Positions 16,404 to 59,993 of a DNA stretch of 64,000 bases are shown in pieces. How positions within the stretch are numbered: position 1 is the stretch's first letter; the number at the start of each line of letters is the position of its first letter. The notes beneath the pieces were generated by a model, which made no database searches, had not been told where the DNA came from, and saw only the letters and a program-made list of their open reading frames with translations. The position numbers and the translations under genes are program-made. Source of the stretch: Octopus vulgaris (taxonomy: Eukaryota); the NCBI GenBank assembly GCA_951406725.2, contig OX597820.1, positions 65,286,001 through 65,350,000 on the forward strand, read 5' to 3'.

Positions 16404-18378
16404 CAGCTGCGGCCATGCTGATGCACCGCCGTTTTGTGTTACACTGTTATTACTAAGAGCCTACTCTAATATGTGGCACTTGGTGAAGAATGGAGTTTGA
16501 TATAGCTACTCTCATTTGCACCTCTTGCCGTGAGGTAGGTTCATCTGGGACTCTCGATAAGAAGAGGTCCAGCTTTGATTAAAAAAACCCTACATCTGCT
16601 TTGTGCAAGTTCCTCAGACTGTTTGGGAGAATATTAATTAGCTGTGGACCCTTGAAACCCAGGATGTTGCAGTAACTTGTCCTGAAAGGTGATGGCATTG
16701 TTAGGATCTTTGGCACTATGCAGTGTCGTCCCGTTCTGGCATTGGTGTAGCTTTCAATGCCAAGAGTTGGCACAATTCCTTCCAGGATCTTCCAGATATA
16801 TATTACTGCATACCTCTCCCGTCTTCTCTCCAGGGAGTAGAGTTTTAGGTGTTTCAACCTTTCCCAGTAACTGAGCTGTTGCGAAGAGACGGTCTTCTTT
16901 GTGAATCTTCTCTGGATTGCCCCAAGGTCCGCTGTTAATTTCACACTGGTAGGTGACCATAGCTGTGAGCAGTAATCCAGGCGGCTGTGGACGAATGTCC
17001 GCCAGAGGACCATCATGGTTTCCTTATCTCTGGTTCTGAATGTTTTTAGGATTCATCCAGCCATCCTGGTAATGTGCACTTGGAAAGCGGTATCATCACT
17101 CATGTCGATACCCAGGTCCCTCACTGACTTAGGCTCTGGGATTGAAATTCCTTATGGACCGGTGTACCCTGTAAGTTTAATATGCAGTTTTGGATGCTGG
17201 TAGCACAGGGCCTGGAATTTTTCAGCATTAAACTGCATATTATTACCCTCAACCCACCTGTAAATTGAGTCCAACCCCTGCTGCAGGTGTGCAACATCGC
17301 TGGGGCTCCGTATTTTCTGTGAGACTTTCGTATCATCTGCACAGCATGCCAGAGTGGCTATTCGGGCATTTGGGGGCATATCTGAAAGGGCCACTATAAA
17401 AAGCAGTGGTCCCAAGACAGTGCCCTGTGGAACACCGCTCACTATTTGTGTGTACATAGAGGTGGCTCCATTAGCCACTACTGCCTTTCTCCTATCTTTC
17501 AGGAAGTCATGTAACCATTCTCCAAGTTTTCCAGTTATGCCAAGGTCACGCAGTTTGTGGCATATCATACTATGACCCACCTTGTCAAAAGCTTTTGCAA
17601 AATCAAGGTATATTACGTCCACAATTGATTTGTTGAGTAACTGCCTCAACACGCAGTCATAATGTTGTAAGAGCTGGGTCAGGCAGCTCCTACCTGGTCG
17701 AAAATCATGCTGGGTATCACTCAGCAAGTTATTTACTTCAAGGAATGCGATTAGTTTCCCTCTGACTATCCGTTCCATGTCTTTGCTGATGTGTGAAGTC
17801 AGAGAGATAGGCCTATAGTTTTGGGCATCTGCTCTACTTCCCCCTTTCTGTATTGGGCATATTATTCCCTCCTTCAGCTTGCTTGGCAGTTTGCTATTTG
17901 TAAGAAGGCTGGAAGAGAATCTTGAGGGGTTTTGCCAGGGCATGCTTACACGCTTTGAGGAAGATTACTGGGAAACCATCAAGACCAGCAGTTAAGTTTG
18001 TGTCCACTTCATTTATAGCTAGTAGTATATCTTCTTCGCTAATGTCAATGTATTCCATTGTAACTGCCTCGCTGGTTATAAGTGAGGCGGCAAAGAAGCT
18101 CACTGGTTCGTTCACTTGTCTGTGTTCCAACGGGGTGGTAAAGACACTTTTGAACTGGTCATTCAGTATCTCACTGATCTTAGTTGGACTGTCTGTGAGG
18201 GAGCCATCCTTTTGGAGAAGGGGTCTTCTCTTGTAGTGTACTGAGGCTGTTTCTTTCGCGTTATGAAAGAAGGCCTTTGGGTTTGTCTAATGTTTTTATA
18301 ACTCAGGCTTCTTTGTCTGCTTTCCTCCTCACATAGGATTGTTGCAGCCTTTTTTCGATTTCCATCAGTGTTGTTTTT
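16404..18378 (-). mobile_element. 5'-truncated, frameshifted CR1-like LINE (RT)
   Basis: ORFs 17152-17943 and 16579-17016 contain NYRPISLTS, QHDFRPGRSC, YLDFAKAFDKV, SGVPQGTVLGPLLF, CADD, RLDYCSQLWSP and LYSLERRRER. Confidence 0.9.
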
Positions 18379-26725: not shown

Positions 26726-27137
26726 GGCGCAGGAGTGGCTGTGTGGTAAATAGCTTGTTTACCAACCACATGGTTCCGGGTTCAGTCCCACTGCGTGGCA
26801 CCTTGGGCAAGTGTCTTCTACTATAGCCTCGGGCCGACCAAAGCCTTGTGAGTGGATTTAGTAGACGGAAACTGAAAGAAGCCCGTTGTATATATACATA
26901 TATATATGTGTGTGTGTGTGTGCGCGTGTATGTTTGTGTATCTCTGTTTGTCCCCCTAGAATTGCTTGACAACCGATGCTGGTGTGTTTATGTCCCCATT
27001 ACCTAGCGGTTCGGCAAAAGAGAACGATTGAATAAGTACTGGGCTTACAAAGAATAAGTCCCGGGGTTGCTCGATTAAAGGCGGTGCTCCAGCATGGCCG
27101 CAGTCAAATGACTGAAACAAGTAAAAGAGTAAAGAGT
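26726..27137 (+). mobile_element. SINE family A, full length, young
   Basis: GGCGCAGGAGTGGCTGTGTGG...GCAGTCAAATGACTGAAACAAGTAAAAGAG. Confidence 0.9.
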
Positions 27138-27415
27138 GAGTATAGATAAAATCAGCCAGTGATGTTGCATGTCGTTTAAAGATATTTCGAAAGCTGGCTA
27201 TGTGGTTGCGGTATCGATTTTTGAAAAAAATCGGCTGATGGCCCGATATGTACGTAGGGGCTTCCTCGAGTGTTTATAGAGCACTTGTATACAACGTTCT
27301 TAGTCATACATTGGTTATCCATAGGTCAATTGGATCTATCTCTGTATGAGCATAACGGTTTGATTCTGGTGACTTGTGTACATCGAACGCTGGAGGGATT
27401 GGTTGTGTTCGGTAT

Positions 27416-27886
27416 TTAGGTTGTCACTGTTATCGATTTATCATCACTAGGTGTTCTCAGTTCATTTTTTGAATTGTTGCTGGTGTTGTTTTTAGGATGT
27501 TTACCATGGATATTGTAAGAACTGCTCTGTTGATTGGTAGTATAATTCGAGTTAAAAACGTTGTCTACAGGTTGGTCATAAGCCTTATGATTAACGTCAA
27601 CATGGTTATTTTGAGTGCTGGCTAATCTTCGCCTCAGTTTACGGTTGTTAATCCTATGAATATGGTGCTCTAAGTTTGAAGAATATGCATAGGATAGTTT
27701 TATAGTGTAACGATTAAATATTTTGCTGTACACTCCATTTTTAGGGAAGCAACGATCAAGTGCGAGGAAAAATTGTGTCGCGGTATGAGATGAGATGCTG
27801 GAGTTCCAGATTAGGTTATACCAAAATACGTCATGGTTTTTTATATTTTCGTTTAGGTGTGTTTGTCTGGGTGCTTCGAGCGGCAA
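27416..27886 (-). mobile_element. Decayed PLE ORF fragment (post-RT linker) of a second PLE lineage
   Basis: VFWYN..WNSSISSH.ATQFFLALDRCFPKNGVYSKIFNRYTIKLSYAYSSNL resembles the PLE motif WFNPP.S..V.T..G..FL.LID.HFP....L.KIFNRNT.KVSYSC..N. Confidence 0.6.
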
Positions 27887-28201
27887 TTGAATTTGGTGGT
27901 TGTAGTTGTTTAATTTGTCTATTATAAGTTTTCTTTAACTCATGGTTCATTCTAGTGTGTCTGGGTTTGGTTAGTCTTATCGTATGGTTTGGGATTCTAT
28001 TATCTAGGTTTCTGACATTATTTTTTTTTTGTAGTTATTGTGGTGTGGCAAGGTTTTTATGATGAATAGTATTATTATTAGTTGAGTTTTAAAAGTTATC
28101 ATTATTATTATATATACATGTGTGTGTGCTATTAAGTTAAATATGGCTTGGGTCAATACAGGCCGAAACCTATCAAAGTCCATATATATATACATATGCA
28201 T

Positions 28202-28306
<105 letters not shown>

Positions 28307-28547
28307 TACATATATATATATATATATAACAATAATAAATCTCTGAGCGAGGTATAAACAGTAACTGCTCTGTAATATAAGCGGGATCAGCCATCTGAAT
28401 GTGGCTAGGGACAGGGCGAGGTTGTGGGGGTGTTACTAATGAATTTAGCCTCAGGCGACTATAGACGACACCAGAAGAGCCGACACCATCACGGTGTCCT
28501 TGCTAGCCTGCAAAGGGAGATCAGCCTCCCCGAAGATACGGATGCTA

Positions 28548-28590
28548 CACACGGACCGGTTTCGAGGTAGTCGCCTCTCGTCAGCGCATG
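28548..28590 (-). ncRNA. Canonical type-I hammerhead ribozyme, monomer 1
   Basis: CAUGCG-CUGACGA-GAGG cgacua CCUC-GAAA-CCGG-UC|CGUGUG. All core nucleotides are canonical, with a GUC cleavage triplet. Confidence 0.9.
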
Positions 28591-28907
28591 GCAAGCACCG
28601 TTCTCCGTTGAGGGACTTCCTCTACAGGCTAGATATATATAGATTTTCACAGTAAACACAGTCACTGGCGTAGAAAATCTGTTCGATAACAATAATAAAT
28701 CTCTGAGCGAGGTATAAACAGTAACTGCTTTGTAATATAAGCGGGATCAGCCATCTGAATGTGGCTAGGGACAGGGCGGGGTTGTGGGGGTGTTACTGAT
28801 GCATTTAGCCCCAGGCGACTATAGGCGTCACCAGAAGAGCCGACACCATCACGGTGTCCTTGCTAGCCTGCAAAGGGAGATCAGCCTCTCTGAAGATACG
28901 GATGCTT

Positions 28908-28950
28908 CACACGGACCGGTTTCGAGGTAGTCGCCTCTAGTCAGCGCATG
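28908..28950 (-). ncRNA. Hammerhead, monomer 2 (G8U core mutation)
   Basis: Core reads CUGACUA. Confidence 0.75.
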
Positions 28951-29267
28951 GCAAGCACCGTTCTCCGTTGAGGGACCTCCTCTACAGGCTAGATATATAT
29001 AGATTTTCACAGTAAACACAGTCACTGGCGTAGAAAATCTGTTCGATAACAATAATAAATCTCTGAGCGAGGTATAAACAGTAACTGCTTTGTAATATAA
29101 GCGGGATCAGCCATCTGAATGTGGCTAGGGACAGGGCGGGGTTGTGGGGGTGTTACTGATGCATTTAGCCCCAGGCGACTATAGGCGTCACCAGAAGAGC
29201 CGACACCATCACGGTGTCCTTGCTAGCCTGCAAAGGGAGATCAGCCTCCCCGAAGATACGGATGCTA

Positions 29268-29310
29268 CACACGGACCAGTTTCGAGGTAGTCGCCTCTCG
29301 TCAGCGCATG
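29268..29310 (-). ncRNA. Hammerhead, monomer 3 (stem III palindrome changed to CUGG)
   Basis: CUGACGA..GAAA-CUGG-UC. Confidence 0.8.
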
Positions 29311-29627
29311 GCAAGCACCGTTCTCCGTTGAGGGACTTCCTCTACAGGCTAGATATATATAGATTTTCACAGTAAACACAGTCACTGGCGTAGAAAATCT
29401 GTTCGATAACAATAATAAATCTCTGAGCGAGGTATAAACAGTAACTGCTCTGTAATATAAGCGGAATCAGCCATCTGAATGTGGCTAGGGACAGGGCGGG
29501 GTTGTGGGGGTGTTACTGATGCATTTAGCCCCAGGCGACTATAGACGTCACCAGAAGAGCCGACACCATCACGGTGTCCTTGCTAGCCTGCAAAGGGAGA
29601 TCAGCCTCCCCGAAGATACGGATGCTA

Positions 29628-29670
29628 CACACGGACCGGTTTCGAGGTAGTCGCCTCTCGTCAGCGCATG
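29628..29670 (-). ncRNA. Canonical hammerhead, monomer 4
   Basis: Identical to the monomer 1 motif. Confidence 0.9.
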
Positions 29671-29835
29671 GCAAGCACTGTTCTCCGTTGAGGGACTTCC
29701 TCTTTGCAGGCTAGCAAGGACACCGTGATGGTGTCGGCTCTTCTGGTGACGTCTATAGTCGCCTGGGGCTAAATGCATCAGTAACACCCCCACAACCCCG
29801 CCCTGTCCCTAGCCACATTCAGATGGCTGATCCCG

Positions 29836-29881
<46 letters not shown>

Positions 29882-31841
29882 CATACGTATATATATATGG
29901 TGTGTGTATATGTGTATGTTTTAGTAGGTCAGGTCACAAAATATATACTATGTTTTTTTATATATATATAATAAACATAGCGTTGGTATTGTTAGTTGTG
30001 GTGATAGATCTATGTGTATATATTCTTTTCTACTCTAGGCACAAGGCCCAAAAATTTGTGGAGGGAGGCCAGTCGATTAGATCGCAACTGGTATCCCGAA
30101 AGGATGAAAGGCAAAGTCGACTTCGGGGGAGTTTGAACTCGGAATGTAAAATAACATAACCTAACAACATGACCTGTATTATTTCTACTGATTCTATCAC
30201 CGACCAGTCTTCGTAATGTTCCTAGGTGTGATATAAACAAAAGAGGAATATAATTCATTAATCCCGCCAAGATAACTTAATTGATAAATTAACTGCTTGG
30301 CTTGCCTTTGTATACATTCGTATGATTTCTCTATGGCTGACTGTTTATCCATCTTATCTATCATTTCCCTCATTCTCGCACCCACTTCCTCTTTCCACAC
30401 AGACAGACGTACGTACGCATACACACGCATGCACACTCATATACATTACATAGACAAAGACCTGCATACATATACAAACATATATAAATATGCTAATGAA
30501 TAAACAGGACAGCGAAGCCATTAAACTTCTAGGATTCGACTGCAAATGTCGATTATATCTTTTTTTTTTTTTTTAGTGTGTGAAGGAAATAATTAATGAA
30601 ATCAGTAGCTGCTGGAAAACGTAATCATTGCTCTACCTCCCACTGCGAAATAATGCTATTGCAAAAATTATACCCAACATCATCTAGAGATGAGACCTTG
30701 GATAAATATAAACAAAACCTGTTATTGAATAAATACATTCAGCACAAGGAATTTGGTGGAATATTCCCATCAGAATGTTTATACCAAGTGCAAACATAAC
30801 AAGCCTGATATAGTTATTTGGGACCCGGCTAATGTGAACAACTCGACCTGAAGCTACGAGAAGGAGAATATTTATCCTGCAACTCCTTAAACCCGATTAA
30901 TTAGTTCAGTTTTATACAAATACTTGTAAGTGCACTCGGTTATATTAATATAATTCTAAGCGAGATTCTTGAAAAGCTATGTACTAAATATATGCAAGAC
31001 TTTCCTAAAGTTCCACTTGTTGCGATTATCATCGTTGTTATCAAAATTACAATGTTGTAGATTTTATTTCTTACTTTGGAAACCAACTCTCTTCTCCTAT
31101 GAAGGATACTAATAAATATAAACTGTCGTTCTATGGTGTGTATAAGGATACATATTATAGACAGACGAAATAGCCTAAAGAGAACAGGAGACGCGAGGGA
31201 TGGAGAGTCGCAGAAGAGGTCACAGGACGTGTGAAGAAAGATTTCCAAGCAACAGACATAAATTAAGAACAATAAAAATAATACATATATATGTAAGGGA
31301 AAAACAACATACACGGACACATACACATGCGTAAATGTATGTACGCATAGCCAGGTGGTTTAAGACTTCGCTTCATATATACGAGGCCTCGGTTTCGATT
31401 CCATCCCGTAAATTCTGTATTATACCGAATGTTATTTCATATTCATGTGTTAAAGAAAGGAAGTGAACTGGCAGAATCGTTAACGCAGCCATCGAAATAT
31501 TTAACAACATTTCTTCGACTTTATAATTTCTAAATTTAAATTCCACCGCTATATCGAAATAAATTGGGAACAGTTCGATATTGCTGTCGATGTAATCAAC
31601 TAACCACCTCCCCCTAAGATTGTGCCAAAATTTGAAAGAAAATAATTATGGGTTACAGAAACACCACATATAGACAGCATAGCAAATATGATGTCGAAAT
31701 GTCCAACAGGATGCAAAGTTCAGAGAATCAGAGCTGTGAAAGAAACTATCTCTAATTAGGGCCCAAAGCGTACCGTATTCTTAAAATGTTGCTATTTTGC
31801 AATCCACAATACAGCACTCCTGGCCAGAAATCATGTGATTC

Positions 31842-36429: not shown

Positions 36430-37950
36430 ATCCTTAAATCCTTTAAAATGCTTCAGCCTGAAGGCTGCGGCCATGCTGGGGCACCACCGTTGAATGAGCT
36501 ACACTAGTATGTGAAACCACCTCTGAGACGTGGCACTTGATCAACAAGGGAGTTCGACGCCGCTGGCCGCATCTGTGTTTCCTGCCGAGAGGTAGGTTCA
36601 TCTGGAACCCCTGACAAGAAGAGATCCAGTTTACTTTTAAAGAAACCCACATCCACACCATGCAGGTCTCTCAGGCATTTAGGAAGGTTATTAAAGAGCT
36701 GTGGTTCCCTGAAACCCAAGCTGTTGTAGTATCTGGTCCTGTATTTTGATGGTGATGTTGGGATCTTTGGCATCATGCAGTGGCGCCCCGTTCTGCTGTT
36801 GGGGTAACTTTCAATGCCAACATTTGAGACAAGACCCTCTAGGATTTTCCAGATGTATATCACTGAATATCTCTCCCGCCTTCGCTCCAGGAAGAAGAGT
36901 TTTAATACTTTCAATCTTTCCCAGTAGCTGATATGTTGCATTGAGACGATCTTCTTGGTGCAGCTTCGTTGGATTGCTTCGAGTTCTGCTGTTAACTTAA
37001 TATTGTGTGATGACCATAGTTGGGCGCAGTAGTCCAAGTAAGTGGCTGAGGACGAATGTCTTCCAAAGGACCATCAATGTTTACTTCTCTCTTGTTCTGA
37101 AATTTCAGAGAATCCATCCAGCTAGCCGTCTGAATTTTATTACCAAATTAGTAATATGCACTTGGAAAGATGCTTCATTGCTCATGTCAATGCCCAGGTC
37201 ACGCACTGATTTTGACACAGGAATTAAATTCTTCCCGGGTCAGTGTATCCGGTCTGCATGTCGTTCACCTTTGTGTGCCGGTAGCGCTGGGCTTGGAACT
37301 TCCCTGCATTAAACTGCATGTTGTTGTCCTGAGCCCACCTGTATATTGTATCCAACTCTCGTTGCAGGTGTGCAACATTTCCAAGGTTTTGTATTGTGTG
37401 AGAGACTTTTGTGTCATCTGAATAGCTAGCAAGGGTGGCCATCTTAGCAACTGAGGGCATGTCTGAAAGGGCCACTATGAACAGCAGTGGCTCCAAGACA
37501 GTGCCCTATGAAACCCCGCTTGTTATTTGTGTTTTCTTGGAGGTGGCTCCATTGGCCACAACTGCCTGTCTTCTATCTTTTAGGAAGTTGTGCAGCCACT
37601 CTCCTGTTTTCCGCCTATGCCGAGATCACGCATTTGTGACAGATCATACCATGGTCGAATTTATCAACAGCTTTTGCAGAGTCGCGATATATTACATCAA
37701 CACTTGAGTCATTTAGTAGCAGTTTTAACACCCAGTCATAATGTTGCAGGAGCTGTGTTAGACAGCTTCTACCTGGTCGAAATCTATGCTGGGTGTCAGT
37801 CAGCAAATCATTTCCTTCAAGGAACATGATTAGTTTCTTGCGGACTATTCGTTCCATGACTTTGCTGATGTGTGAGGTCAGAGAGATAGGCCTATAATTT
37901 TTAGCATCTGCTCTGCTTCCTCCCTTATGGACAGGGTATATTATCGCTTC
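36430..37950 (-). mobile_element. 5'-truncated CR1-like LINE, same family as 16404-18378, with intact 3' tail
   Basis: NYRPISLTSH, QHRFRPGRSC, PLLFIVALSD, YSDD, DYCAQLWS and LERRRERY. The 3' end is GGTGCCCCAGCATGGCCGCAGCCTTCAGGCTGAAGCA(TTTAAGGA)n. Confidence 0.9.
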
Positions 37951-38525
37951 TTTCTTTTAATGTTTTGTTCTCACTGGCCTGGTTTTGTTACGACTATCAC
38001 CCTCCGCAAAAAATCTCAATTTTTAAAAAATTTGCTTTGCGGGAAGGATTGTTTTAACGAAGTCGCAGAATAGATAAAACAGGGGACAACTGATCAAGGC
38101 AATCTTGCCTATCTCATTTCTCTGTTTCTTTCTTTCTTTGTTCGAAAAAAAGTTCGTTTTCTAATTTTGCATACGTTTTTTTTTTATGTCCTGTACCCAT
38201 ATATATGCATGTATATATACATATATATATGTAGGTATATAAATATATGTATGTATATATGCATATATTTATATATATATATACTCTTTACTCTTTTACT
38301 CTTTTACTTGTTTCAGTCATTTGACTGCGGCCATGCTGGAGCACTGCCTTTAATCGAGCAACTCGACCCCGGGACTTATTCTTTTGTAAGCCCAGTACTT
38401 ATTCTATCGGTCTCTTTTGCTGAACCGTTAGGGGGGACAAACAGACACACAAAAACACACACGCATATATATATATATACGTATATATGACGGACTTCTT
38501 TCAGTTTCCGTCTACCAAATCCACT

Positions 38526-42257: not shown

Positions 42258-42354
42258 CAGTTTTATATTTAAGAGATGCTCATAGGCATATTGCGTAGTG
42301 GTTAAGAGCTTGGGCTACTAATCCCAAGATTCCGAGTTCGATTCCAAGCAGTGA

Positions 42355-42426
<72 letters not shown>

Positions 42427-42572
42427 CTACAACATCGAAAAATACCTTAGGAATGAGAACCCAGGTTCGAAATTTCCCCAAGGCACCTGATGAGGGCGGG
42501 ATGGTATTTCAGCCGAAACGTTGTGTTAGCAACAATCAAGATGAGGACAAATATCCGTCAAACGTAAATTAT

Positions 42573-53167: not shown

Positions 53168-53953
53168 ATATATACATATATATGTATATAGTAAGGAAAA
53201 ATTTTTTAAAAATGCAGAATGCTCAAATGAAAGAAAATTTTAATAAAATGAGAAAATGATAAAATATATAAATATATATTTATTCAACCGGTTTTCGTCA
53301 TTGTATGACTTGTCAAGAATATTTATGTTTTAAGAAGTTTTTTTAAAAATTAGAAAGGGGAAAAAAAGAAAATTGCATTGTTTTTTGTAAAAGAATAATG
53401 ATAAAAATGTACAAAAATTGAAAAATAAGTTCTCCGATACATTGTGAGTTCGTTGTGTATCTTGAGTTTTATGGTTGTTTACCAAAAAATTACCTTGAGG
53501 TGTTAAGATCCAAAGGGATTAAGAGCATGTGATGTGTTGTGTTGTTAAATTCAGCATGTTGCAGGACAGGAAGTAGTAGTAATTGTGGTCCTGGTTCTTC
53601 AGTTCCTGTGTTGTGAGTAAGGGGAGACAACTCTTTTGAGTTCTTCAATAAAACCCAAATTATAAAACTATCATTTTAGCTTCATTTGCATTATCTTTTT
53701 TACATAATTGCTTGTTAACTTAACTTTCAGATTTTAACACTTTATTTATATTATTTTCTAATAATATAAATCTGCATAGACAATTGCATTTCAAATTGTC
53801 ATATCATTTATAATAAAAATGATAGTAATAACAACAATAGTAAAAATGATATTTAAAGAATATAAGTTTTAGCTTGAAGTGATGAATGCATGGTATCTTT
53901 ATATATTTGTGTTAGTCCATCCATGAAGAGTGAGGTAGAGAAAGGAAGTTTGA

Positions 53954-55243
53954 TCAACGAGGAGTTTGCATATTAAGTTGTGTTTGGAATTTTTCAATAA
54001 AGAGATTCTCCTTGTTAATTCTCTCTTGTGTGGTGATCCCGTCTTTACATTGGTAGAAGGGGAATATATAGAATTTGGGGTTTAAGTCTTTAGCACATGA
54101 GTCTAAGTGGTCACTCAGTGGAATTTGTCGGTATTCCGGGAGATTTATTTGTTCTTTATGCACCGTTACTCGTTTACGTAACGGGAGACTCGTTTGTCCA
54201 ACATAATTATGTTGGCAACCAGCGCATGTGAGAACGTAGATAAGGTTCTCGGAGGAACAGGAGAAGTTAGTCTTGATTTTAAACTTCGTACCTTGTTTGA
54301 AGGTAAATTCAGAGCCTTCAAGTAGAAAGGGGCAGGTACCACAGTTTGAGCGTGCACATTTTTTTACTGTTGGGGGTGGATGTGGTGTGTGAAGTTTGGC
54401 ATTTGTCAAGAGTTTTTTTAAAGATTTGTGTTGCCTTTTGCATTTGAGGATTTTGTGTGTATTTATAATGTTTTTCATTTTTGGGTCTGTTGACAGTAGA
54501 CTGAGGTTTTGTATGATTGTGGTGTATGCTTCGATATTTTTGGGGTTGTGGGTGGAAATGTATGGAAGTATTTTGAGGTTGTGTGTGGTGTTAGGTTGGG
54601 TGGTTTTCAGTGTAGTGTTGTCTAGTTCTTTGGCGCGTTTTATTCCATACTCTATAAGGGTGGAGGGATATTGACGTTGTAATAGTGTTTTTTTGAGGTC
54701 TTGAAGGCGTATTTCTCGTGTTTTTGGATCCGAGACAATGGTGCATACCCTTTTAGCTAAATTGAAAGGGATATTTGTCTTGGTGTGTTTTGGGTGGCAT
54801 GAACTAAAGAGGAGGTATTGTTGTGAGTCTGTAGGTTTGTGGTAGATGTCTGTTATGATTTGGTTCTTAGGTGTTTTTATAATTAGGAGGAATGGGAGAT
54901 GATGTTTGCTTAATTCCATAGTGAATTGGATGTTGGGATGTATGTTGTTTAGTATGGTTTTGAATTCCAGGAGTTTTTCATAAGGTTCTTTCCATATGAT
55001 GAAACAATCATCTAAATACCTTTTCCAGTTTTCCATTAGGTAGGTGTGGAAAACATGTCCAACTTTCTGGCTTGATATTTCATAGAGTGACAGTTCGAAG
55101 TAACCCATTATGAGGTTCGCAAGGACTGGTGCAGCCTTGGTACCCATCGCAATGCCACATTTTTGACGGTAGTGTGTGTCGTCGAAGAGAAAAAAATTGT
55201 TTGTCAGAATGAACTTAAGAGATTCTGTAATAAAAGACTTGTT
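53954..55243 (-). pseudogene. Inverted partial copy of the same PLE ORF (C-terminal RT + GIY-YIG)
   Basis: Protein identical to the + copy except a 6-nt deletion (LPFLLII vs LPFLDLLII) and CTIVS vs CTNVS. Confidence 0.9.
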
Positions 55244-57232
55244 CTCCCCTTTACCCCAAGCAAAACCAAGGTAAAATCCAATTTCAGTAAGGAAGAATGG
55301 GAAAACCTACGTGACATACAACTGGATAAAAACCTCACCATCAAAGAAGCGGACAAAGGGAGTGCTGTGGTCCTTATGGACACGGAATTTTATAAACACC
55401 TAGTTTTCTCCATGCTTAACAATAACATTTTCTATGAGGTTATTAACAACTACAAACAGCAAAAAACAATCAGAAACCTCACCACACTCATACGCCAACA
55501 CAGTCAGGGACTCACAGAAAAAGAAAGGGATTATATCACCATTTTCAAATGCAAGCCCAGCCTTTTTTATGGCCTTCCTAAAATCCATAAAAACAAATAC
55601 ATCACCGAAGCCTGCAAACTCTCCACTGACATCCACATCAACATCAAAGCACCGGAGGACCTAAAACTAAGGCCCATCGTGGCTGGGACCTCCTGTGAAA
55701 CACACCGCCTGAGTAACTTCCTAGACATCCTTTTGAAACCTTTCCTTACCCACATCAAAAGTTTCATTAGGGATGATCTGGACATGCTCAAACACCTCCC
55801 GAAAACAGTTAACGAGGAGGCACTCCTGGTATCCTTTGATGTCATCAACCTCTACACCAACATTCCACATGAGTATGGTATAGAGGCAATTGACTTCTGG
55901 CTAGAAAAACACCCAGAGACATTCCCTGACCGCATTAACAAGTCTTTTATTACAGAATCTCTTAAGTTCATTCTGACAAACAATTTTTTTCTCTTCGACG
56001 ACACACACTACCGTCAAAAATGTGGCATTGCGATGGGTACCAAGGCTGCACCAGTCCTTGCGAACCTCATAATGGGTTACTTCGAACTGTCACTCTATGA
56101 AATATCAAGCCAGAAAGTTGGACATGTTTTCCACACCTACCTAATGGAAAACTGGAAAAGGTATTTAGATGATTGTTTCATCATATGGAAAGAACCTTAT
56201 GAAAAACTCCTGGAATTCAAAACCATACTAAACAACATACATCCCAACATCCAATTCACTATGGAATTAAGCAAACATCATCTCCCATTCCTTGATCTCC
56301 TAATTATAAAAACACCTAAGAACCAAATCATAACAGACATCTACCACAAACCTACAGACTCACAACAATACCTCCTCTTTAGTTCATGCCACCCAAAACA
56401 CACCAAGACAAATATCCCTTTCAATTTAGCTAAAAGGGTATGCACCAATGTCTCGGATCCAAAAACACGAGAAATACGCCTTCAAGACCTCAAAAAAACA
56501 CTATTACAACGTCAATATCCCTCCACCCTTATAGAGTATGGAATAAAACGCGCCAAAGAACTAGACAACACTACACTGAAAACCACCCAACCTAACACCA
56601 CACACAACCTCAAAATACTTCCATACATTTCCACCCACAACCCCAAAAATATCGAAGCATACACCACAATCATACAAAACCTCAGTCTACTGTCAACAGA
56701 CCCAAAAATGAAAAACATTATAAATACACACAAAATCCTCAAATGCAAAAGGCAACACAAATCTTTAAAAAAACTCTTGACAAATGCCAAACTTCACACA
56801 CCACATCCACCCCCAACAGTAAAAAAATGTGCACGCTCAAACTGTGGTACCTGCCCCTTTCTACTTGAAGGCTCTGAATTTACCTTCAAACAAGGTACGA
56901 AGTTTAAAATCAAGACTAACTTCTCCTGTTCCTCCGAGAACCTTATCTACGTTCTCACATGCGCTGGTTGCCAACATAATTATGTTGGACAAACGAGTCT
57001 CCCGTTACGTAAACGAGTAACGGTGCATAAAGAACAAATAAATCTCCCGGAATACCGACAAATTCCACTGAGTGACCACTTAGACTCATGTGCTAAAGAC
57101 TTAAACCCCAAATTCTATATATTCCCCTTCTACCAATGTAAAGACGGGATCACCACACAAGAGAGAATTAACAAGGAGAATCTCTTTATTGAAAAATTCC
57201 AAACACAACTTAATATGCAAACTCCTCGTTGA
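55244..57232 (+). CDS. PLE reverse transcriptase + Cys linker + GIY-YIG endonuclease (5'-truncated, uninterrupted frame)
   Basis: RT motifs KEADKG, FYGLPKIHK, LRPIV, SFDVINLYTNI, GIAMGT..APVLANL, RYLDD, LPFLD and YHKPT. Linker CARSNCGTC is Neptune-like. Endonuclease: LIYVLTCAGCQHNYVGQT..R..H..E..LN. Confidence 0.92.
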   Translation, partial: LPFTPSKTKVKSNFSKEEWENLRDIQLDKNLTIKEADKGSAVVLMDTEFYKHLVFSMLNNNIFYEVINNYKQQKTIRNLTTLIRQHSQGLTEKERDYITIFKCKPSLFYGLPKIHKNKYITEACKLSTDIHINIKAPEDLKLRPIVAGTSCETHRLSNFLDILLKPFLTHIKSFIRDDLDMLKHLPKTVNEEALLVSFDVINLYTNIPHEYGIEAIDFWLEKHPETFPDRINKSFITESLKFILTNNFFLFDDTHYRQKCGIAMGTKAAPVLANLIMGYFELSLYEISSQKVGHVFHTYLMENWKRYLDDCFIIWKEPYEKLLEFKTILNNIHPNIQFTMELSKHHLPFLDLLIIKTPKNQIITDIYHKPTDSQQYLLFSSCHPKHTKTNIPFNLAKRVCTNVSDPKTREIRLQDLKKTLLQRQYPSTLIEYGIKRAKELDNTTLKTTQPNTTHNLKILPYISTHNPKNIEAYTTIIQNLSLLSTDPKMKNIINTHKILKCKRQHKSLKKLLTNAKLHTPHPPPTVKKCARSNCGTCPFLLEGSEFTFKQGTKFKIKTNFSCSSENLIYVLTCAGCQHNYVGQTSLPLRKRVTVHKEQINLPEYRQIPLSDHLDSCAKDLNPKFYIFPFYQCKDGITTQERINKENLFIEKFQTQLNMQTPR

Positions 57233-57864
57233 TCAAACTTCCTTTCTCTACCTCACTCTTCATGGATGGACTAACACAAATATATAAAGATACCATGCAT
57301 TCATCACTTCAAGCTAAAACTTATATTCTTTAAATATCATTTTTACTATTGTTGTTATTACTATCATTTTTATTATAAATGATATGACAATTTGAAATGC
57401 AATTGTCTATGCAGATTTATATTATTAGAAAATAATATAAATAAAGTGTTAAAATCTGAAAGTTAAGTTAACAAGCAATTATGTAAAAAAGATAATGCAA
57501 ATGAAGCTAAAATGATAGTTTTATAATTTGGGTTTTATTGAAGAACTCAAAAGAGTTGTCTCCCCTTACTCACAACACAGGAACTGAAGAACCAGGACCA
57601 CAATTACTACTACTTCCTGTCCTGCAACATGCTGAATTTAACAACACAACACATCACATGCTCTTAATCCCTTTGGATCTTAACACCTCAAGGTAATTTT
57701 TTGGTAAACAACCATAAAACTCAAGATACACAACGAACTCACAATGTATCGGAGAACTTATTTTTCAATTTTTGTACATTTTTATCATTATTCTTTTACA
57801 AAAAACAATGCAATTTTCTTTTTTTCCCCTTTCTAATTTTTAAAAAAACTTCTTAAAACATAAA

Positions 57865-57905
57865 TATTCTTGACAAGTCATACAATGACGAAAACCGGTT
57901 GAATA
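57865..57905 (+). ncRNA. Variant minimal hammerhead (U3-A8) in the PLE 3' region; mirror copy at 53281-53321 (-)
   Basis: TATTC-TTGACAA-GTCA tacaa TGAC-GAAA-ACCGGTT-GAATA. Confidence 0.7.
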
Positions 57906-58042
57906 AATATATATTTATATATTTTATCATTTTCTCATTTTATTAAAATTTTCTTTCATTTGAGCATTCTGCATTTTTAAAAAAATTTTTCCTTACTTAT
58001 CATTTCTCCACGTGCGGTCAACACAACCCCACCATTTATTGA

Positions 58043-58044
<2 letters not shown>

Positions 58045-58992: not shown

Positions 58993-59329
58993 ACTCGATT
59001 ACCCAATCTCCGTTTCGAGTCGATATGAAGACGTATTGCCCTGAAGTTTGGGTTTTGCACTCACGATCGAAGGATCATCGTTTCGAAACCCCGTCGATAC
59101 GGTGCGTTGTGTTCTTGAGTAAAAAAAAATATATTAACGCACATCTTGTCCATTCAGCGATAAAGGAGTTCAGCATTATCAGGAAAGTTAACGCTGCAAC
59201 GGACATTTGGGAGCCAGGAGCTGGGTTGTAACCTCAGTCATTAATACACCGCGAAAATTGGCTTACGACCCTACCTTCTGAGTCATTGGGCTCGTGATTG
59301 ACTTACATCCACTTTCAAGCCGGTATTTC

Positions 59330-59993
59330 AAAAATTATGCGCGTTAATGAAGAAAACAGCGAACGTATTAAACTAGAAAACGGTGAACTAGAGGATGTAG
59401 CCGAATTTACGTATTTAGGTAGTAAGATAATGTTTTCAGGTGGCACCGACGAAGATATTAAGACGAGAATAAGTAAGGCAAGGACCGTTTCTCACCTGTT
59501 AAAAAGAGTATGGAGCGCAAGTGCAATTTCAATAAGGAACAAAATAAGAATTTCTAACACTAACGTAAAAGCGGTGTTATTGTATGGGGCTGAGACATGG
59601 CGAACAACAGTTAAGTCAAATAAGCAAATACAATCATTCATCAACAGATGCTTGAGTAGTATACTCAAAATTTTATGACCCGAACACATAAGCAATATGG
59701 AGCTATGGCAAATAACAAATCAAGTTTCGATTAGGGAGTAAATATAAAAGAAAAATTTGAAGTGGATTTGTAGCACAATTAGAAAAGACACACCAAATGT
59801 AGCGAAAAGTGCTTTACAGTGGAATCCGGATGGATATAGAAAGAAAGGTAGGCCTAAGATCTCGTGGCGTAGATCAACACAAAAGGAACTAAAGAAAGGG
59901 GGACATTCATGGCAGAGTATAAGTACAGAAGCGAAAAATTATGTGACATGGAATTCAATTATAAGTGACCTATATTCTGCGTTGGAGGGTTAA
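59330..59993 (+). mobile_element. RTE-clade LINE 3' fragment
   Basis: LEDVAEFTYLGS..DEDIKTRISKAR..VKAVLLYGAETW..FINRCL..ALQWNPDGYRKKGRPKISWRR. Confidence 0.85.

Follow-up and report, generated by a model that had tools for sequence, protein, structure and literature searches.

Metazoan non-LTR retrozymes, among them those of mussel and the axolotl/newt satellite 2, are described as tandem non-coding units of 150-450 bp, each carrying a single canonical type I hammerhead, with a structured monomer, target duplications of more than 4 bp and neither LTR, PBS nor PPT (PMC7229834; Cervera and de la Pena 2020). According to that paper, which defined them, the mussel units of 350-390 bp form circles, and the co-existing Penelope-like retrotransposons (PLEs), which bear minimal hammerheads, are candidate helpers. 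Vertebrate retrozymes, dispersed in the genome as monomers, dimers and multimers, have been interpreted as derivatives of PLEs that lack autonomy (Li, Clavereau and Pollet 2026, bioRxiv 10.64898/2026.07.22.740005). A PLE helper was therefore already proposed, from co-occurrence (PMC7229834) and from frog pLTR similarity (Li 2026 preprint). PLE insertions go to microsatellites and are marked by 5' truncation, partial tandems, a 5' copy in inverted orientation and a tail on one side (PMC8557442). This tail reaches from one internal RT start site to a second, both target strands being cut and extended, and has been called unique to PLEs (PMC11167929). In the giant squid genome, Hammerhead-1 matches were counted earlier (PMC6962438).

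We analysed a 64,000-nt stretch of Octopus vulgaris DNA (the window) that contains an array of a 360-nt repeat within a (TA)n microsatellite. The repeat is very probably an animal non-LTR retrozyme, a non-coding and non-autonomous retroelement for which the RT-endonuclease of a PLE, most likely one of Neptune type, does the copying. The kind itself is already described (PMC7229834; bioRxiv 10.64898/2026.07.22.740005) and the octopus family is a further case of it: its units are tandem, non-coding and within 150-450 bp, two or more of them carry a complete hammerhead motif, copies are dispersed, no LTR is found, and visible target duplications (12-13 bp) exceed 4 bp. It differs from the retrozymes described in PMC7229834 in a G+C content of about 50%, which is above that there. 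What is added here is insertion-level evidence of mobilisation by a PLE, which is strongly supported. The insertion at the window locus consists of the following features.

28182..28328, no strand: (TA)n target tract, left (TRF)
28326..29842, no strand: whole insertion, in which two arms of the 360-nt element lie head to head and each 3' end continues into (TA)n
28326..29703, - strand: main arm of 3.8 units in tandem, with its 5' truncation at 29703; the 3' end is the distal site B, with tail
28326..28374, - strand: tail, about 48 nt, from one fixed 3' end to the other (putative RT start sites)
28503..28632, - strand: 14-bp stem (28632-28619 paired with 28516-28503), ribozyme inside
28548..28590, - strand: type I hammerhead of unit 1, canonical, predicted cut 28554/28553
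28908..28950, - strand: hammerhead of unit 2, core change G8U, probably inactive
29268..29310, - strand: hammerhead of unit 3, one change (CUGG) that breaks the stem III palindrome
29628..29670, - strand: hammerhead of unit 4, canonical
29702..29842, + strand: inverted arm, 5'-truncated, monomer positions 171-311; the 3' end is the proximal site A, without tail
29838..29898, no strand: (TA)n target tract, right (TRF)

The first-pass annotation of the window had described a head-to-tail 360-bp array inside (TA)n, and TRF reports a tandem of period 360 at 28326-29703 with 3.8 copies and 97% matches. The stretch 29702-29842, which had been counted as part of the tandem, is instead an inverted partial unit of 141 bp. 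The two arms meet 5' to 5' at a 2-nt microhomology (29702-29703) that lies within the element's own 14-bp stem. All hairpin words that had been named are present in the array, and the folding of the monomer has a z value of -3.3. Fold prediction suggests that the 14-bp stem would keep both ends of a cut monomer together. The longest ATG ORF within the units has 43 aa and one of 69 aa spans the inversion joint, in agreement with the earlier view that there is no credible ORF. The monomers had also been called GC-rich, which is correct relative to the window background and incorrect in absolute terms (G+C of the array 50%).

On the - strand each unit contains a type I hammerhead, whose canonical form is CAUGCG-CUGACGA-GAGG(CGACUA)CCUC-GAAA-CCGG-UC|CGUGUG. 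The canonical units are 1 and 4, and the predicted cut lies between 28554 and 28553 and then every 360 nt, all as first annotated. The Rfam check that had been proposed gave no support, since no hammerhead model matched at the gathering score or up to E=10; the E-value matches were microsatellite-driven miRNA and similar models. A descriptor fitting the unit was matched by 2 of 20,000 dinucleotide shuffles of the monomer. Among 86 units at 40 loci of the family (family A), all 11 strict core bases are kept in 67, and intact consecutive hammerhead units occur at loci L025, L093 and L109. Ribozyme variants common to at least three of these 40 loci lie in loop II, except G8A (10 loci) and one palindrome change (3 loci).

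The genome was searched for the exact ribozyme motif, which gave 132 matches with C3 and 24 with U3, 156 together, which puts the ribozyme copies of family A and its close relatives at no fewer than about 150. U3 is accompanied by A8 in 22 of the 24, the other two being U3-G8 in family C, a sister family; for C3, of which the first 100 listed among the 132 were counted by eye, 81 have G8. The U3-A8 pair is a known natural covariant (PMC4209133). In an alignment of 19 ribozymes from three families, 95.5% of the cells are paired and two-sided changes occur in 8 of 15 pairs, against 14-53% of cells paired in slid controls of the same alignment. Its rows were hand-picked among matches to the core pattern and represent about three lineages, so the covariation is to be read as structure conservation and not as a probability. 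Stem III is palindromic over 6 or 8 nt in the three families (ACCGGU, ACUAUAGU and ACUCGAGU/ACCCGGGU), and its inner pair needs a second ribozyme to form, in keeping with the dimer model of palindromic stem III hammerheads (PMC4209133). The first-pass reading of a type I hammerhead with a palindromic stem III is supported by the covariation of the stems and the 3-8 pair across the three families. Compensatory changes in stems I-III and in the 3-8 pair, in families 10-25% or more apart, support continued selection for the fold of what is predicted to be a dimer-type hammerhead. Dimeric PLE hammerheads are reportedly the subject of a paper by Lunse et al.

Some observations would argue against easy cleavage. 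The lowest-energy fold of the isolated ribozyme is an inactive alternative, and the double hammerhead is predicted at -25.9 kcal/mol vs -35.2 kcal/mol for two inactive folds, tertiary contacts being outside the energy model. In many copies of family B, the other sister family, the basal pair of stem II is a C-A mismatch, and 7 of 18 rows are unpaired there. In the preprint on vertebrate retrozymes, 8 of 9 predicted dimers stayed uncleaved in vitro (Li 2026, bioRxiv 10.64898/2026.07.22.740005).

A genome-wide search with the monomer found at least 134 matches on 19 contigs (40 of 1,973 first-look candidates were scored), and a 30-nt word of the tail occurs 357 times in the genome. The array is a member of a young dispersed family with two sister families. 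Family C is about 76% identical to family A, family B has a unit of 355-358 nt, and both have the tail and overall layout of family A, the distal 40 nt or so of the tail being common to all three. Contigs of four runs of conjectural RNA status span the monomer piecewise and do not show ends, strand, level or circles; their loose ends led to family B and to the U3-A8 variant, and both were verified in the genome. Family B is found at L063-L091 and family C at L163, L165, L167, L179 and L181, and in both the stem III palindrome has 8 nt and the insertions are two-ended as in family A. Elements also stack in the same microsatellites: at L017 (2737-2967) a two-armed family B insertion lies in (TA)n directly after a family A insertion, and at L233 a family B copy follows a Neptune.

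The head-to-tail layout and the Rfam result would suit a simple satellite confined to this locus or a hammerhead-like match arising by chance, but the copies on 19 contigs, the fixed 3' ends and target duplications described below, the rarity of the descriptor in shuffles and the covariation make that explanation exceedingly improbable. The local satellite was rejected on the dispersal and insertion data, and the single-locus case that the first-pass annotation had named as its own refutation fails. A plant LTR retrozyme, with LTRs, a type III hammerhead and a 4-bp duplication, was likewise rejected, as here the hammerhead is of type I, the units are tandem and the duplications are longer.

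We compared the insertions at 73 loci, 40 of them found by score, 14 through the U3-A8 motif and 19 through the word from the tail, which together have 122 arms longer than 45 nt. Arms were delimited with BLAST, which can overlook very short ones, and the choice of 40 of the 73 loci favoured long copies. In 117 of the 122 arms the 3' end falls at one of two fixed sites about 48 nt apart, site A at monomer positions 305-317 (50 arms) and site B at 350-360 (67 arms). (TA)4 is entered at 99 of the 122 arm ends. Two arms are present at 45 loci, and at 41 of these they lie head to head with one 3' end of each kind. Target duplications of 12-13 bp are visible at non-microsatellite sites (L023, L094, L109 and L209) and shorter ones at L028, L172 and L174; elsewhere they are hidden in (TA)n. 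The element has no poly-A or repeat tail of its own at its 3' ends.

The tail between fixed 3' ends, the inverted 5'-truncated arm and the AT-rich or (TA)n target are what a non-autonomous PLE would have, and the element lacks the RT and GIY-YIG ORF of an autonomous one. Since the two fixed ends, the inverted arm and the (TA)n target form the anatomy of PLE insertions, mobilisation by a PLE, as the first-pass annotation had supposed, is strongly supported. PLEs of the Neptune clade and PAc (PMC8557442; PMC11167929) and non-autonomous Chlamys elements such as MRC1 share 5' truncation, the inverted 5' copy, the tail at one end, partial tandems and (TA)n or AT-rich targets with the octopus element. 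The element differs from PLEs in having no ORF, in a canonical hammerhead with a full 6-bp stem I where PLEs have a minimal one, and in a tail of about 48 nt vs 30-40 bp in the PLEs of those two papers. Inverted arms and two fixed 3' ends are present here, whereas the main text of PMC7229834 contains the word "inverted" 0 times. Our literature search, of limited coverage, found no description of a tail-and-inversion footprint on retrozymes; with the repeat databases (Repbase, Dfam) outside its scope, it found none of the octopus 360-nt family either.

5' truncation and 5' inversion occur with LINEs too. A SINE-like element moved by a LINE would share these traits, and LINE-type RT fragments of RTE, CR1 or L2 type are present in the window. 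We regard this as very unlikely given the two fixed 3' ends, one per arm, the missing poly-A or repeat tail, the tail that is reserved for PLEs in PMC11167929, and an ARAGORN run that finds no tRNA gene in the window. The LINE-type RT fragments are broken and lie at 16579-18286, 36504-37956 and 59298-59678.

The footprint also constrains the template. If a ribozyme-cut linear monomer were copied, arms ending at site A would be capped at about 180 nt and 5' ends would pile up at position 133. Arms with their 5' end within 3 nt of the cut site number 2 of 122 (2.4 expected if uniform), and 41 of the 50 site-A arms run past the cut site (>185 nt), in a sample that leans to long copies. The ribozyme cut sets neither end of an inserted copy. 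As copy ends are not at the cleavage site, the template had intact sites, either as an uncleaved multimer or as a re-closed circle, with the multimer slightly the more probable of the two.

Units diverge by 1.0% within arms, 1.1% between arms and 3.4% between loci. The single haplotype of each locus, present in both arms, suits a circle or a uniform multimer. At the window locus, two private variants occur in all covering units and one of them also in the inverted arm. Such uniformity would be expected if cut monomers were ligated to 360-nt circles and the PLE RT lapped the circle from internal starts, giving tandem arms. The 14-bp stem, which would bring the ends of the cut monomer together, and the abundant circles of mussel, coral and axolotl retrozymes (PMC7229834) also speak for it. 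However, identical pairs of long units within a locus number only 4 of 78 and only 29 of 52 units have their nearest neighbour within their own locus, so that much of the similarity reflects subfamily membership. In L025 three variant sites repeat at a period of three units and in L093 one repeats at a period of two, which points to multimer templates or later duplication and would be impossible from a monomer circle without such duplication. The main substrate in PAc is uncut RNA (PMC11167929). Copying from circles formed in this way is thus a serious possibility, at somewhat less than an even chance.

The hammerhead could also be a passenger in a non-autonomous PLE derivative, with uncut read-through multimers as sole templates and little or no monomer or circle. 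Copy ends are not enriched at the cut site, the lowest-energy fold is inactive, and PAc insertion in vitro is unimpaired by ribozyme mutants (PMC11167929). A subfamily with a C3-A8 mismatch has spread to 10 of the 40 family A loci, which indicates that a perfect core is dispensable for jumping. The compensatory changes among the diverged families, on the other hand, require ongoing selection, and we consider the passenger explanation rather unlikely.

Returning to the PLE-copied retrozyme, its cycle may run as follows. The array would be transcribed from the - strand, and the hammerheads could cut the transcript into 360-nt monomers, probably paired via the ACCGGU palindrome. By analogy with published retrozymes, and given the covariation, the monomers may be ligated to circles. 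A PLE protein, suggested by the footprint, would cut (TA)n or AT-rich DNA and prime RT from both target strands at two internal RNA sites with about 48 nt between them; the next cleavage site lies roughly 130 nt downstream of one and 180 nt downstream of the other. Both cDNAs would traverse the ribozyme site, stop variably and join 5' to 5', leaving the head-to-head arms, one with the tail, that are seen in the insertions. A further proposal, which we make tentatively and hold to be doubtful, is that circular ribozyme RNAs are copied by a rolling Neptune-type RT-endonuclease from two internal starts, with recognition by the enzyme through the conserved 40-nt tail and not through pLTR descent. 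If true, this would be natural rolling-circle target-primed retrotransposition from defined starts, open to direct test in vitro.

The first-pass annotation had suggested a PLE such as the Neptune 24 kb away as the helper. We inspected this element and the other PLE-like sequences of the window.

26956..27934, - strand: old broken PLE-like frames directly left of the array
53193..58043: young Neptune-type PLE, two head-to-head 5'-truncated copies in (TA)n, 3' ends about 47 nt apart
53281..53316, - strand, and 57870..57905, + strand: minimal U3-A8 hammerhead-like motif with AACCGGUU palindrome, in the Neptune

The Neptune, assigned to its clade from the CX4CxxC linker ahead of the GIY-YIG domain, has many near-identical copies in the genome with open frames of about 750 aa. 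Among 34 uncut 3' ends of its family, 17 are long and 16 short. Its two-ended anatomy and (TA)n target, shared with the repeat, count for mobilisation of the repeat by a PLE. DNA similarity does not extend the link to this particular element: the window Neptune has none detectable with the A or B monomers (best match 11 nt), and these monomers found nothing at E<0.05 in 30 GIY-YIG loci, which by eye comprise about seven Neptune-like families and one non-PLE match. Aligned with 7 Neptune 3' ends, the tail scored no better than chance (P 0.42-0.97), and a likeness to the tail of a 781-aa Neptune, seen by eye, failed the shuffle test (P 0.42). Neptune ORF pieces are held by 3 of 79 tail-bearing loci. 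L233, considered as a tail-bearing Neptune, was rejected because the tail belongs to the family B copy, which lies in opposite orientation in (TA)n after the Neptune. No pLTR or 3'-end similarity to an autonomous PLE was found in the families sampled, a fraction of the PLE families of the genome. MRC1-type elements, by comparison, have a 3' end like that of their helper, a likeness not found here in the PLE families sampled. In Xenopus the link consists of co-occurrence and pLTR homology (Li 2026); here it is the insertion footprint, and pLTR homology was not found in the families sampled. Without DNA similarity to the retrozyme, the neighbouring Neptune is one candidate helper among several. 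The original retrozyme interpretation thus holds for the dispersed element, the selected hammerhead and PLE mobilisation.

Several other Neptune-like families (L116, L121, L113, L110, L125, L130 and L233) have AT-rich 3' regions, and some carry minimal U3-A8 hammerhead motifs. The ACCGGU palindrome of family A is also found in L125/L131, L130 and L233. Being common to several Neptune hammerheads of the genome, it might, speculatively, allow ribozymes of parasite and helper to pair in trans. An Atlas search supports a PLE-type protein family only. The old frames beside the array, which may be Hydra-like, have their best other copies at 67-73% protein identity. Many "Hyd2" matches among the tail-bearing loci were discarded, as residues about 40-105 of that frame read through a common short repeat. 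Across 19 loci of the old PLE-like fragment we found one 55-nt match to family B (E 0.004). A possible decayed hammerhead-like remnant was seen by eye at about 28140-28180 (+ strand).

These data place a PLE footprint on the retrozyme insertions themselves, with likely RT start sites fixed to within a few bases, and support the proposed, little-tested idea that retrozymes borrow the enzymes of Penelope-like retrotransposons. Young intact Neptune ORFs in the same genome turn the question of circle or multimer into a concrete in vitro experiment, and the natural core variants (C3-G8, C3-A8 and U3-A8) are a built-in test of the importance of cleavage for spread.

The window holds a further, separate and abundant element with a hammerhead.

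42285..42565, + strand: tRNA-like head (about 42291-42354) followed by (AAT)n and a body, in which a minimal type I hammerhead lies at about 42481-42520

The tRNA-like head is not called by ARAGORN. Our literature search found no paper plainly describing a tRNA-headed SINE with a PLE-type hammerhead, which is what this element looks like. Head and body are joined in 15 of the 20 best loci among 1,919 first-look candidates. In several copies 5' parts are inverted and the 3' extension varies, and the element may be PLE-mobilised.
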